IMG/VR virus record: IMGVR_UViG_3300043427_003402
Source: a virus
Direction: 5' to 3' (one strand)
Length of the DNA: 64,000 nucleotides
Under the pieces are notes generated by a model, which saw only the letters and a list, made by a program, of their open reading frames with translations, was not told the origin of the DNA and did no database searches. Both the position numbers and the translations under genes were made by a program. This document shows positions 24,404 to 57,803 of this stretch, piece by piece; position 1 is the stretch's first letter, and every line of letters starts with the position of its first letter.

Positions 24404-24422
24404 AAGTCCTCCTGTGTACACA

Positions 24423-24445
24423 CGCCGGATTACCCGCCGGCTCGG
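24423..24445 (-). repeat. 23-bp hairpin motif, copy 1, upstream of RBS
   Basis: CGCCGGATTACCCGCCGGCTCGG, identical at three loci. Confidence 0.85.
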
Positions 24446-27365: not shown

Positions 27366-27722
27366 CTAGATGGTGATGCCCTCAAGCGTAATTTTTGCCA
27401 CACCTGCACGGCCCACAGGGTAGCCGTCGGGCCAACGCTTGAGAACGACTTCTGCCTCTGGATTACTCGGACCAGGGTCCCACTCTTCGGTAAAGCAGTT
27501 TCGGCCGAACGGGTTGTACTTTACCTTGCGCCCTTCTACAGGCCCTGGGTCACTAATTAAGAACCCTTCAATCCACGCGTTAGTTTTGCCTACACCCACT
27601 TGAAACCGCACGTCAACCAGTGTGATCGTGTCGGTCTGGTCAACTGTTTTCCAGCGCCCGTTAATTTTGCGCTGTACCGACAGGGATTTGTTATTTATGC
27701 GCACTCGCACCCATGTAGTCAT
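27366..27722 (-). CDS. Hypothetical phage protein
   Basis: AGGAGG SD; L.DVRF.V..AWIEG..V.YNPF motif. Confidence 0.65.
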   Translation of the reverse strand: MTTWVRVRINNKSLSVQRKINGRWKTVDQTDTITLVDVRFQVGVGKTNAWIEGFLISDPGPVEGRKVKYNPFGRNCFTEEWDPGPSNPEAEVVLKRWPDGYPVGRAGVAKITLEGITI

Positions 27723-27734
27723 CGCGCCTCCTTT

Positions 27735-27757
27735 CGCCGGATTACCCGCCGGCTCGG
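27735..27757 (-). repeat. 23-bp hairpin motif, copy 2
   Basis: Identical to copy 1; abuts AAAGGAGG SD. Confidence 0.85.
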
Positions 27758-27766
27758 AAGTCTAGT

Positions 27767-28087
27767 CTATCGCGAGTTTTTCTCAGTGATGTACAGAATT
27801 TGCGAAAGGCTTATGTCGTTGTTACTGAAACGTTCCCCTAATGTGAAGCCGTCTTCATCGCGCATTGCCGCTTCGGCCGGCGTGCAGCCGTTTGCAGCAA
27901 GAAGAAACGCGCTTCGCGCGTCCCAACACTTAGCGTCAATGTAGTCTTCGATTGTGTCGACATCAAGATTAGTCTCGTACCATTCTTGGATGGTCTCTTC
28001 GACCTGCCCGCCATGCAGCCAGTCGCCGCCTTGTTCAACAATTCGCTCAATTTGGCTTCGCCTGTTTAAATTCAAGTAAGACGTCAT
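27767..28087 (-). CDS. Acidic hypothetical protein
   Basis: GAGGAG SD. Confidence 0.6.
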   Translation of the reverse strand: MTSYLNLNRRSQIERIVEQGGDWLHGGQVEETIQEWYETNLDVDTIEDYIDAKCWDARSAFLLAANGCTPAEAAMRDEDGFTLGERFSNNDISLSQILYITEKNSR

Positions 28088-28099
28088 TGTTGCTCCTCA

Positions 28100-28122
28100 C
28101 GCCGGATTACCCGCCGGCTCGG
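28100..28122 (-). repeat. 23-bp hairpin motif, copy 3
   Basis: Identical to copy 1; abuts GAGGAG SD. Confidence 0.85.
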
Positions 28123-36272: not shown

Positions 36273-36353
36273 TTTACGACCTCCTCGCCCCTTGGGGCTG
36301 TATCACGCAGCATTTATTACGCGCCCTGCGCTGGCGCCGGTAACTGTTTAGCC

Positions 36354-36794
36354 TTACCCTATCACAAGCGCCCCGTCGGGCACTTGCTCCATGAACGAGT
36401 CAAATGCCACTTGCATGCGCCCCATGGCGTGATCAGGCACCGGGTTTGTCCGCACCAAATTCCGCGCACGGCAAACGTCGTGCGGTGTGTTGAACACCAC
36501 CAAGTTGACGGCGTAACCGGCCGCCGTCAACTTACTGATTAACGCTTCGCGAAACTGCGGGTGCAGGTTCGTATCGCTGACGTAGAGCGGCACGCCTTGC
36601 CCGATTACCGCGTCAACCAACGCGGTGTGTAACGCCACAGCTTGCGGCGTGCACGCTTGGTTTGTGGCGTCCCCCGACACCGCATGGCGGCAGTCATCGA
36701 GGTTAACGTTAACCCCGCCATTTTGCGCCACCTGATTTGTGGCCCAGTACGTTTTACCGGAACCAGGAATACCGACCGTGATGAATGCTTTCAT
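36354..36794 (-). CDS. Polynucleotide kinase-like P-loop protein (T4 PNK kinase domain / AAA_33-like)
   Basis: VGIPGSGKT; D..R; DTNL; C..RN..R...VP. Confidence 0.8.
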   Translation of the reverse strand: MKAFITVGIPGSGKTYWATNQVAQNGGVNVNLDDCRHAVSGDATNQACTPQAVALHTALVDAVIGQGVPLYVSDTNLHPQFREALISKLTAAGYAVNLVVFNTPHDVCRARNLVRTNPVPDHAMGRMQVAFDSFMEQVPDGALVIG

Positions 36795-36814
36795 TACTTC
36801 TCCTTTCCGCAAAC

Positions 36815-37370
36815 CTAAAGGAAAAACCTTATTTCGCCGGCGCGAGCTGGCGATGAGGGAAATAACCATCACGCACACACACGCTCCCTACTAAGGAAGT
36901 GAATGTGAATGATAGTTATTCCCCTCATCGCCAGCCCGCGCTGACTCAGGGTGCCACGTATTTATCCTGCGCCCGTGACGGCGCGGAGCTAAAGGAAAAA
37001 CCTTATTTGCCAGCGCGAGCTGGCGACGAGAAGAATAACCATCACGCACACGCGCACGCACATACTCCCTCTTAAGGAAGTAAATGTGAGTGTGAATGTG
37101 AATGATAGTTATTCCCCTCATCGCCAGCCCGCGCTGACTCAGGGTGCCACGTATTTATCCTGCGCCCGTGACGGCGCGGAGCTAAAGGAAAAACCTTATT
37201 TGCCAGCGCGAGCTGGCGACGAGAAGAATAACCATCACGCACACGCGCACGCACATACTCCCTCTTAAGGAAGTAAATGTGAGTGTGAATGTGAATGATA
37301 GTTATTCCCCTCATCGCCAGCCCGCGCTGACTCAGGGTGCCACGTATTTATCCTGCGCCCGTGACGGCGC
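36815..37370 (-). ncRNA. Three tandem 174-193 bp units, each a long rod-like hairpin RNA
   Basis: Units start at 36815, 36989 and 37182; units 2 and 3 identical; 37 contiguous bp with 7 G.U pairs only on the minus strand. Confidence 0.7.
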
Positions 37371-37375
37371 AAAAA

Positions 37376-38269
37376 TTAGATCAATTTCTTTTCGAGCATC
37401 TCCTTTCGTGCCCTTTTGGCGGCACTGAGGCTGCCACCAAGGCAGCCGTGCGCTTTCGCGATGTTCGCGATTTGCTGCGCTTGGTCCCTTGATAAGGACC
37501 GACCACTCCATTTTATTTCACCTTGGTCCCTCTCCGGGACCAAGGTGAATCCGTAGGCCGTTGGCCCAACCCATAACACAGTTGCCTCGCCCGGTCCGTT
37601 CCGGACCGCGGTCCTTAAGCCGACCGCTTCTTGCGCCCGAGCACAGGCGCTTTGCGCGGCTTCCGCCGCACCGAAGGCTTTTGTCCGGCTTTCGCCGGAC
37701 AAAAGCCAGGCGGCCTTTTCGGCCGCTTCTTCTGCCTGGCGGAGGAGGCTGACAGCCTCCTCCGCGTCTTCGACGGCCGCTTTGCCGTCGAGGACGCCCC
37801 AATCAACTTGGTCGGCGACCCCCGCCGCCGTTAGCGCGTCGCGGAACGCGCTCAGGTGCCGACTTCCAAACCCTTGTTCACGGGTCAGGGGCCCGTCTAA
37901 ATCGTATGGGTCGTAACACAACACCACGCACGACTCCGCCGCCGCGCCCCGCCCCCGACGCGCCCCGCCCGTGGGGCGATGGATCTCGACCCGGACTTGC
38001 CCGTCCGGGTAGACACACCATCGAGTCCGCCCGGTGCTTGTCTCGTGGTAAACTGCGTGGTCCTCATTAAAGTGGTCAAACCGGTATGCGGGACCCCATG
38101 TCCCGTGGCTCATGCCACAGGCCGCCATAGCGGCCGCCGCTATGGCGGCTTCCGTTTTAAGTTGGAGCACCTGCTCCAGCGCTAGGCTTGTCGCCCACTC
38201 GTGCCCGAAGGCACGGGCCACTTTGTAGGCCGTCTCTAATTGTTTTTCTGTGAATCCTTGGAAACCCAT
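37376..38269 (-). CDS. Hypothetical protein (first gene of the minus-strand cluster)
   Basis: Long ORF; AAGGCGG before ATG 38269. Confidence 0.6.
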   Translation of the reverse strand: MGFQGFTEKQLETAYKVARAFGHEWATSLALEQVLQLKTEAAIAAAAMAACGMSHGTWGPAYRFDHFNEDHAVYHETSTGRTRWCVYPDGQVRVEIHRPTGGARRGRGAAAESCVVLCYDPYDLDGPLTREQGFGSRHLSAFRDALTAAGVADQVDWGVLDGKAAVEDAEEAVSLLRQAEEAAEKAAWLLSGESRTKAFGAAEAAQSACARAQEAVGLRTAVRNGPGEATVLWVGPTAYGFTLVPERDQGEIKWSGRSLSRDQAQQIANIAKAHGCLGGSLSAAKRARKEMLEKKLI

Positions 38270-38357
38270 GATTAACCGCCTTTTGCTCGCGACCGTTAGC
38301 CGTGCTGACGCCAGCACGTTTACACCCCGCACCACGTGTAGGTGGTCGCTTGCGGGG

Positions 38358-38560
38358 CTAAGCAAGTTAACGTCATGCTCAGGACGGGTTGCTTACTGGT
38401 CAGACTCACCACGTCTGACAGGAGTAGTCGATCAGTCAAGAGGTCATTGCGACTACTCTAAGCAATGACTTTGGAGCAGCTTTAACGTCGTACTCAGGAC
38501 GCCCCTTTACAGCTCAACCCCTAAATAGCGAATCACCCTGCACGCAAACACGTACAGGGA
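38358..38560 (-). promoter_or_regulatory. Structured 5' leader with two H-type pseudoknots and intervening hairpins
   Basis: CGUC-CUGAGYAY-GACG-UUAA..UGCU at 38358-38386 and 38474-38501. Confidence 0.55.
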
Positions 38561-56927: not shown

Positions 56928-57803
56928 TTAAAGTCCTATATCGTGCAGAACGTCGCCCATCTCGGCCGCTATTCGTTTACGCAGCTGTAACAGCGTCTCT
57001 TCTAAGTCTTTACTAATCTGATTATAGCTCCGACCGATCTGTACGCCAAAGCCATTAACCCCAGGGACCAGTTCACCGTCTTCAATTACTGTTAGCTTAC
57101 CTGTAATCGCTCGTTTGTTGTGCTCGGCGTCTTCAAAGTAGATTCCAAGGTACTGGCAAACCAGAACACCCTCTACCGCAGGCAGTTCCGCAAGCAGCTC
57201 CAGTATCTCCTTTGTGAGGGCTGCGGAGACGTACTGGTTCTCGGCCGAACCTGAAACGAGTTGCGCGTCGGCGGCCAGCGCCGCGACCGCGGAGAAGTCA
57301 TCGTCGGTAGTATCGGTGCCAGTTTCGTACTGCCTGAAGTTAGGGGCGTCAAACGACCACGTGCCCGCGGCCAGCGCACGAAGTTGAAACTTGCTGAACT
57401 TTTCGTAACTTTTACGCTCCGCTTCCGTCACGCTGTTGGGGTCGCGCTCCAGCTTGTTCAAGTGCGTCTTCAGCTCAACGAGCTTCAGGAAAGGAATGGT
57501 AGCCATGTAACCCATTTTGCTCATGTGATCCGTCAACGCGCGCTTAATAATCCAAAAGGCATACGTTATCAACTTGTTCTTGCAGGTCAGGTCGAACGTT
57601 TTGATAGCCGTCATCATGCCGATGTTGGCCTCTTGCATGACGTCTTCCATCGCCACCCAATCTGGGTACGTGATACGGTTAACGAGCATCTTTATAAAAG
57701 AGCGGTGCCGCTTCAGCAGCGCCATCATCGCATCGCCATCTCCGGACTGCGCACGGCGGATGAGTTCAAGCTCGTCAGTCTTTTCTTTGCTCACTCTGGG
57801 CAT
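56928..57803 (-). CDS. Phage-encoded sigma70-family RNA polymerase sigma factor
   Basis: ELELIRRAQSGD..A...L; EDVMQEANIGMMTAIKTFD..TYAFWII (region 2). Confidence 0.85.
   Translation of the reverse strand: MPRVSKEKTDELELIRRAQSGDGDAMMALLKRHRSFIKMLVNRITYPDWVAMEDVMQEANIGMMTAIKTFDLTCKNKLITYAFWIIKRALTDHMSKMGYMATIPFLKLVELKTHLNKLERDPNSVTEAERKSYEKFSKFQLRALAAGTWSFDAPNFRQYETGTDTTDDDFSAVAALAADAQLVSGSAENQYVSAALTKEILELLAELPAVEGVLVCQYLGIYFEDAEHNKRAITGKLTVIEDGELVPGVNGFGVQIGRSYNQISKDLEETLLQLRKRIAAEMGDVLHDIGL

Follow-up and report, generated by a model that had tools for sequence, protein, structure and literature searches.

A Tandem Array of Long Hairpins with Strand-Biased Wobble Pairing between Two Genes of an Uncultured Large Phage

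Introduction

To our knowledge, near-perfect RNA helices of 60 bp are very seldom seen in bacteria or their viruses, and RNase III should cut them in every cell that possesses it. What role several such helices in a row could play between two phage genes is the question raised by the locus described here. It lies in a stretch of 64,000 nt (IMG/VR virus record IMGVR_UViG_3300043427_003402), which we analysed as a whole and call the window. The DNA belongs to an uncultured large tailed phage. Two genes on its minus strand are separated by a gap of 582 nt (stop at 37376, downstream ATG at 36794), and this gap is almost entirely occupied by a tandem array of hairpins, the sole long hairpin structure within the 64-kb window. 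The array is on the minus strand as well. The original prediction, made from the letters of the sequence, interpreted it as a dosage-amplified non-coding RNA with a conserved structure. Here we report what the array looks like, how it compares with its relatives and with known RNA families, and which function we consider the most plausible.

Results and Discussion

The window encodes a family A DNA polymerase, ThyX, a primase/helicase-like protein, a UvrD helicase and nucleases at 0.8–16 kb, followed by baseplate genes at 38.7–41.3 kb. Upstream of the primase/helicase-like gene we noticed an AT-rich gap (407–700) with 41-nt inverted arms (85% complementary) and long T/A runs, among them a (TA)n run at 538–557; this gap may serve as an origin of replication or as a promoter region. 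A phage sigma factor (56928–57803, minus strand; Sigma70_r2, 5e-13) sits among the unannotated large genes in the right half of the window. Additionally, one 23-nt hairpin motif is found directly before the ribosome-binding site of three unrelated minus-strand genes (24406–24445, 27718–27757 and 28083–28122).

The tandem hairpin array is real. It consists of three head-to-tail units of 175, 193 and 193 nt, close to the 174, 193 and about 189 that had been predicted. TRF gives a period of 193 with 2.4 copies and 100% identity (36899–37370), and the repeat search adds a diverged first (left) portion at 36818–36878, which is 80% identical to the other two copies. On the sense (minus) strand, the units are arranged as follows.

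37183–37375, minus strand: unit 3, 193 nt, first on the sense strand, beginning directly after the stop codon of the orphan gene
~37351–37374 and 37203–37331, minus strand: small and long hairpin of unit 3
36990–37182, minus strand: unit 2, 193 nt, differing from unit 3 in the first 5 nt only
37158–37180 and 37010–37138, minus strand: small and long hairpin of unit 2, separated by a 25-nt linker and followed by a tail with U5
36815–36989, minus strand: unit 1, 175 nt, the short variant with both arms shortened
36965–36987 and 36836–36945, minus strand: small and long hairpin of unit 1

Units 2 and 3 have 188 nt in common, and their difference is limited to the 5' flank of unit 3. Each unit starts with a small G+C hairpin (5–8 bp stem, 6-nt loop), continues via about 25 unpaired nt into a very long hairpin and ends with an A/U-rich tail containing U5; AU-rich single-stranded flanks hence surround every long hairpin. 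The small hairpin is the GCGCC/GGCGC element noted before, and we found it in all units. The placement of the array between the upstream gene, an orphan ORF, and the gene of an AAA_33/T4-Pnk-like kinase was confirmed.

The minus strand folds into exceptionally stable structures. We obtained MFE values of -111.7 (unit 2), -111.9 (unit 3) and -100.7 kcal/mol (unit 1), with z-scores of -13.4 and -12.7 against dinucleotide shuffles (0 of 200 shuffles were as good), while the plus strand reached only -88.9, -87.5 and -84.7 kcal/mol (units 2, 3 and 1). Every unit forms a rod of 57–60 bp on the minus strand. In units 2 and 3, the fold contains the helix of 37 uninterrupted bp including 7 G.U pairs that had been described, and beyond it about 21 further pairs, interrupted by 1x1 mismatches and one 2-nt bulge, lead to the UAAG loop in both the MFE and the centroid structure, in good agreement with the expected extension of about 20 bp. 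The proposed closing helix AGGAUAAA/UUUUUCCU can form, but with a pair probability of 2–4% and an energy 2.2 kcal/mol above the MFE it is not the favoured fold.

The difference between the strands stems from wobble pairs. Read as the minus strand, the long hairpin has 9 G.U positions and the short hairpin 8; read as the plus strand, both have 1. When distinct alignment columns are counted, wobble versus A.C gives a ratio of ~11:2 (binomial p ~0.02–0.04). The neighbouring sequence of the minus strand is G- and A-rich, not G- and U-rich, and the bias is therefore not caused by background composition. For the hairpins alone, RNA energies are -91.4 (minus) versus -72.2 kcal/mol (plus) for the long and -80.5 versus -66.4 kcal/mol for the short hairpin, whereas DNA energies are -44.5 versus -40.0 and -40.8 versus -36.8. 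The strand difference thus amounts to 14–19 kcal/mol with RNA parameters, compared to ~4 with DNA parameters. Within the 37-bp helix no Watson-Crick run exceeds 8 bp, so that the palindrome is heavily interrupted as DNA but continuous as RNA, and the latter on the minus strand only. The idea of a strand-specific structure on the strand of the flanking genes is consequently supported, and it fits RNA better than DNA or protein.

These energies also bear on a possible role of the DNA itself, in which a single-stranded hairpin or cruciform would serve as a replication or priming signal, or as a packaging or recombination site. G.T pairs are tolerated in DNA hairpins, the minus strand folds slightly better as DNA, too, and the contigs of two assemblies end at the array. 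The asymmetry is, however, far smaller for DNA than for RNA, and the contig ends are situated one k-mer from a divergence point, as graph breaks rather than physical ends are. Furthermore, the GC skew does not switch at the array and the replication genes are 20–35 kb away. We consider a function at the DNA level very unlikely.

Does the short unit tell us whether the structure is under selection? The 5' arm (minus strand) is the same in all units, save for a deletion of 11–12 nt in unit 1, and at the position facing this deletion 8 nt are missing from the 3' arm of unit 1, with the apex retained. Both arms were thus shortened together, as had been noticed, which points to two separate events that preserved the pairing. 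The swaps between G.U and Watson-Crick pairs in unit 1 are present as well, at four stem positions, but every one of them is one-sided: because the 5' arm is identical across units, they arise from changes of the 3' arm only. One stem pair is broken in unit 1, and 0 of 70 pairs are altered on both sides between unit 1 and the long units. In each arm the distal stem is made of hexamer repeats (TRF period 6), so that the changes in arm length resemble microsatellite slippage. The mirrored indels fit the claim that structure is conserved; this claim depends, however, on two variants within one phage lineage, the nearest relative of which does not have the element. With only two sequence variants and no double compensatory change, selection on pairing is suggestive, not proven.

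The array could, by the same token, be functionless or selfish DNA that arose through inverted duplication, hexamer slippage and tandem duplication and is tolerated in a hypervariable spot, its RNA fold being a by-product. Its hexamer-repeat distal stem and the missing double compensatory changes would be expected in this case. The element is, moreover, confined to one lineage, with the closest relative lacking it, and since about six samples have it without any difference, no variation is there that would show constraint. We nevertheless find this explanation doubtful, albeit one to be taken seriously, since it does not account for the strong wobble bias on one strand, which background composition leaves unexplained, nor for the two separate indels after which the arms still match; a mobile element should, in addition, show dispersed copies, terminal inverted repeats or target duplications, and none of these is present. 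If the array is indeed functionless, it documents how palindromes and microsatellites grow in hypervariable regions of phages.

To what extent the units are amplified depends on the assembly. Wherever further assemblies of what is essentially one phage overlap with the window, every base agrees, and both unit types were seen in at least six samples. The phage is present in the JGI samples 3300047564, 3300047510 and 3300044701 and in the runs SRR35181947 and SRR35356175. The second identical long copy is present only in the assembly of this window; two JGI contigs (L008 and L020) carry one long and one short unit each. Two contigs, one from JGI and one from Logan, stop inside the first unit, and two Logan contigs start exactly 31 nt before the point where short and long units diverge. 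This start is one k-mer from the divergence and thus the graph break that a repeat is expected to induce. The copy number is two or three, and the difference may be due to assembly collapse of an exact 193-bp repeat. Neither the two identical units nor the dosage amplification that was derived from them is therefore borne out by these two other assemblies.

We also found no sign that the units form an independent non-coding RNA gene, as had been proposed. No sigma-70-like promoter is predicted on the minus strand of any unit, and no real intrinsic terminator inside the array. The simplest reading is thus that the array is transcribed together with its flanking genes.

A protein product can hardly be the explanation. 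The ORFs of 76 and 80 aa read through the hairpin, give low-complexity products and have no counterpart among the PHROG families. A hydrophobic ORF of 24 codons in the 3' arm of the long units would, on this reading, act as a type I toxin-like peptide, and a purine-rich, Shine-Dalgarno-like run at the hairpin apex precedes it. Due to a 1-nt indel, its frame is not kept in unit 1, where it runs into the kinase ORF, and it is buried wholly within the 60-bp duplex; it is regarded as incidental. Although these ORFs exist, we rate a coding function as exceedingly improbable.

The array matches no known RNA family. No Rfam family reached its gathering score anywhere in the window. The suggested likeness to 6S RNA found no support, as searches with 6 kb and 211 nt gave no Rfam 6S match at E<=10 and the fold lacks the central bubble. 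Permissive Rfam scans of the array (E<=10) returned no Y RNA, antitoxin RNA or CRISPR-repeat match and no hammerhead, twister, HDV, hairpin, pistol or hatchet ribozyme; a ribozyme-like match appeared only outside the array (38289–38358). Eukaryotic miRNA-precursor models did appear in these scans, all sub-threshold and on both strands, which indicates generic hairpin likeness and not membership. A resemblance of the small hairpin and its 3' flank to CRISPR I-E repeats, as in an RNA anti-CRISPR, was considered and found no support: a 76-nt search, which a host-specific mimic could escape, gave no match to a CRISPR-DR family at E<=10.

Copies of the array were likewise not found by BLAST in INPHARED phages or PLSDB plasmids, and exact patterns, which diverged copies could escape, gave no true copy in IMG/VR, JGI metagenome contigs or GTDB genomes. 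Six pattern matches in GTDB were rejected as chance matches inside GC-rich coding DNA. We then compared the genes on both sides with their relatives. Seven homologues of the kinase gene (48–73% identity) stand in differing contexts and have short or unstructured upstream gaps without a long hairpin. No long hairpin is present in the three baseplate-syntenic relatives (L017–L019) either, the two more distant of which (L018 and L019) have other genes at this position. The array is hence dispensable for the gene set.

The closest syntenic relative, L017, is the most instructive. Its baseplate protein is 86% identical, and the alignment (~77% nucleotide identity) proceeds up to window position 38516 and resumes at 36298, so that an island of 2.2 kb is absent. 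It is replaced by ~400 nt (3663–4060 of L017) with a 40-aa ORF, small hairpins and a canonical intrinsic terminator, which makes the locus an operon boundary in this relative. Just past the terminator we detected a 40-nt stretch homologous to the 3' end of unit 1 (13 + 16 exact bases); the 16-nt core of the unit 1 tail is the only part of the array that L017 also has. Judged from these sequences, either the array was built up from sequence present at this spot, or the stretch in L017 is what remains of it. A lineage-specific and recently duplicated element is the best explanation for the array.

In our phage, the island and its genes have the following layout.

36298–38516, minus strand: variable island of 2.2 kb with leader, orphan gene, array and kinase gene
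37376–38269, minus strand: upstream gene P0011, an orphan of 297 aa
36795–36830, minus strand: junction to the kinase gene, where the U/C-rich tail of unit 1 pairs with the kinase Shine-Dalgarno sequence (predicted)
36354–36794, minus strand: downstream gene, a 146-aa polynucleotide 5'-kinase domain with no phosphatase domain

The kinase matches AAA_33 (4e-20) and PHROG 505 (1e-20), and its best PDB matches are T4 Pnk (1ly1/1ltq) and the kinase domain of C. thermocellum Pnkp. The start codon with a good ribosome-binding site gives the 146-aa protein. Public gene calls place the start 25–28 codons too early, in the 3' arm of unit 1 (36795–36878, minus strand), and obtain 171–174 aa; an exact look-up of the 171-aa call yielded no record. 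In the centroid fold, the unit 1 tail and the kinase Shine-Dalgarno sequence are predicted to form a 9-bp hairpin, which competes with a local 4-bp hairpin.

Pfam, PHROG and NCBIfam gave no match for the upstream protein P0011. We assign its N-terminal ~150 aa to an unnamed family of phage proteins with 74 remote relatives, mostly of 150–320 aa, in which His23, Trp25, His75, Thr77, Gly80-Arg81, Arg98-Pro99 and Arg137-His138 are invariant; one relative, whose contig we read, sits among small phage genes. The AF2 model calculated from the family alignment is confident (pLDDT 80.5), but no PDB fold resembles it convincingly: Foldseek returned nothing at E<=0.001, and the highest VIA-align Z was 3.8. 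An assignment as 2H phosphoesterase was dropped, since the second His motif is not conserved as H-x-S/T and no structural match was obtained.

The island leader contains a candidate for an HDV-like self-cleaving ribozyme (38289–38358, minus strand). It is a full-length match to the Rfam family HDV-F-prausnitzii with 24.9 bits, below the gathering score of 44 (E 0.017 in a 551-nt search). By eye we recognised a 7-bp P1 with G.U at the cleavage site, a 3-bp P3, a 7-bp P4, a GGCUAA junction and a perfect 6-bp P2 pseudoknot, which the covariance model does not score. Cleavage by this candidate would create a 5'-OH on the very RNA that also comprises the orphan gene, the array and the coding sequence of the 5'-OH kinase. 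Further small elements were noticed in the island. In the leader, GTTAA follows a small hairpin at two sites (38367–38385 and 38482–38500, minus strand), and a similar form is found twice in the replacement cassette of L017 (~3818 and ~3845); it may be a phage-specific RNA signal. The TATATATAG box of the leader is unique, with no second copy in the window. The 16-nt tail motif and a 15-nt linker motif of the array are not repeated elsewhere in the window either, and are thus not general promoter or terminator signals.

Which function would such an array have? Our preferred reading, to which we assign a probability of roughly 0.4, is that the hairpins are cotranscribed intercistronic or 5'-UTR dsRNA elements which act in cis in RNase III-type processing or in mRNA stability. 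They would be made within the mRNA of the orphan gene and the kinase and fold co-transcriptionally. The helix of 37 bp and more would then be a substrate for an RNase III-type enzyme of the host, or a block for exonucleases, and by either route it would part the two cistrons and determine how stable the flanking mRNAs are and how well they are translated. The U/C-rich tail of the last unit could also mask the ribosome-binding site of the kinase by pairing with its Shine-Dalgarno sequence, so that kinase translation may hinge on processing of the last hairpin. In favour of the cis function, the strand on which wobble pairing is favoured is that of both flanking genes, the island leader carries other RNA structures, including the HDV-like ribozyme candidate, and the array places at least about two turns of dsRNA between the cistrons on the strand that is presumably transcribed through it. 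The small number of element variants (two), with no compensatory double change, and the kinase homologues and syntenic relatives that lack the hairpin argue against it. A cis role also does not explain why the duplication is retained; the extra identical copy would in this model be a recent duplicate created by slippage or recombination.

The wobble pairs could have a second consequence. SbcCD acts on hairpin-forming phage DNA. Phage palindromes, T7 RNase III sites among them, also trigger the DdmABC/Lamassu defence as DNA hairpins (PMC11707656). By keeping the RNA helix intact while restricting the perfect DNA palindrome to runs of <=8 bp, the G.U pairs may spare the phage hairpin-directed DNA instability or defence.

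A trans-acting, copy-number-amplified RNA is in our view rather unlikely. Released hairpins would here be a decoy or sponge for a dsRNA-binding enzyme or sensor of the host, or would be diced into small RNAs. The AU-rich single-stranded flanks could permit such a release, and both the neighbouring RNA-end kinase gene and the variable, accessory nature of the island would suit this role. Abundant intergenic small RNAs are known from lytic phages such as LUZ7, and structured phage RNA is reportedly sensed by a bacterial cyclase. The 100% identity of the two long units suggests a very recent duplication and copy number varies between assemblies, but this variation may be assembly collapse, and no relative keeps the element. 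Individual units have no promoter or terminator, and matches to 6S, Y RNA, CRISPR repeats and antitoxin RNAs are lacking. Complementarity of the array to the rest of the window was not found at >=13 nt or above chance. An even bolder version appears improbable to us, namely that the island is an RNA-centred cassette (ribozyme-like leader, orphan protein, array, 5'-OH kinase) from which the phage makes a copy-number-tunable dsRNA that acts in trans against the host, for example by saturating RNase III or a dsRNA-sensing defence, or after dicing to guide-sized RNAs. If a trans-acting dsRNA did prove true, it would be the bacterial-virus counterpart of the hairpin and decoy RNAs of eukaryotic viruses, and a new kind of phage counter-measure.

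Conclusion

With processing or stabilisation in cis as the preferred reading, the array offers near-perfect RNA helices in tandem and with a strand bias, next to the gene for an RNA-end kinase and within an island at whose start a self-cleaving ribozyme seems to lie. It is a locus at which one can ask how RNA structure serves a large phage in processing or protecting its mRNAs, and if G.U pairing retains an RNA hairpin while avoiding the DNA palindrome that host nucleases or Lamassu-type defences attack.

Among known systems, the T7 R-sites, lambda sib and the lambda N-leader likewise place a sense-strand hairpin between co-oriented phage genes, with dsRNA of sufficient length for RNase III. 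They serve, in T7 and lambda, to cut polycistronic RNA into units and to protect the ends. These RNase III sites are single, irregular and ~20–30 bp long with internal loops, whereas the array has rods of 57–60 bp in a tandem of 2–3, shows no sequence similarity to them, and its cleavage is only predicted. REP/BIME, ERIC-type and MITE-like elements are likewise non-coding palindromes between co-oriented genes, which form a rod when transcribed and are sometimes in tandem. Those families are dispersed in many copies; the array occupies one locus in the 64-kb window, without terminal repeats or target duplication. In the phage LUZ7, the intergenic gap between orf69 and orf70 is rich in hairpins and gives rise to abundant small RNAs of undefined role, with a mapped promoter and terminators (PMC9163698). 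Both this hotspot, a functional precedent for abundant phage RNAs rich in hairpins, and the array are hairpin-rich non-coding gaps in a phage gene block, yet they share no homology in sequence or structure, and the array has no predicted promoter or terminator.

ToxI-type antitoxin RNAs and phage pseudo-ToxI expansions are also tandem non-coding repeats of variable copy number directly upstream of a gene. Their repeats measure ~34–45 nt (~36) and are followed by a gene for a ToxN/AbiQ-fold endoribonuclease. In contrast, the units of the array have 175–193 nt, the downstream gene encodes a P-loop, Pnk-type kinase and not a ToxN fold, and no terminator stands between; the defining feature of a type III toxin-antitoxin system is thus absent. 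With 6S RNA the units have length (175–193 nt) and rod shape in common, but the large central bubble, which mimics an open promoter, appears in neither the MFE nor the centroid fold. Repeats that bear self-cleaving ribozymes (viroid- or retrozyme-like) differ from the array units, which have no known self-cleaving motif. Because the array is longer and more regular than RNase III sites, tandem rather than dispersed, and without relatives, it belongs to neither of the two groups that it appears to resemble most, the phage RNase III hairpins and the REP-type palindromes that stabilise mRNA.
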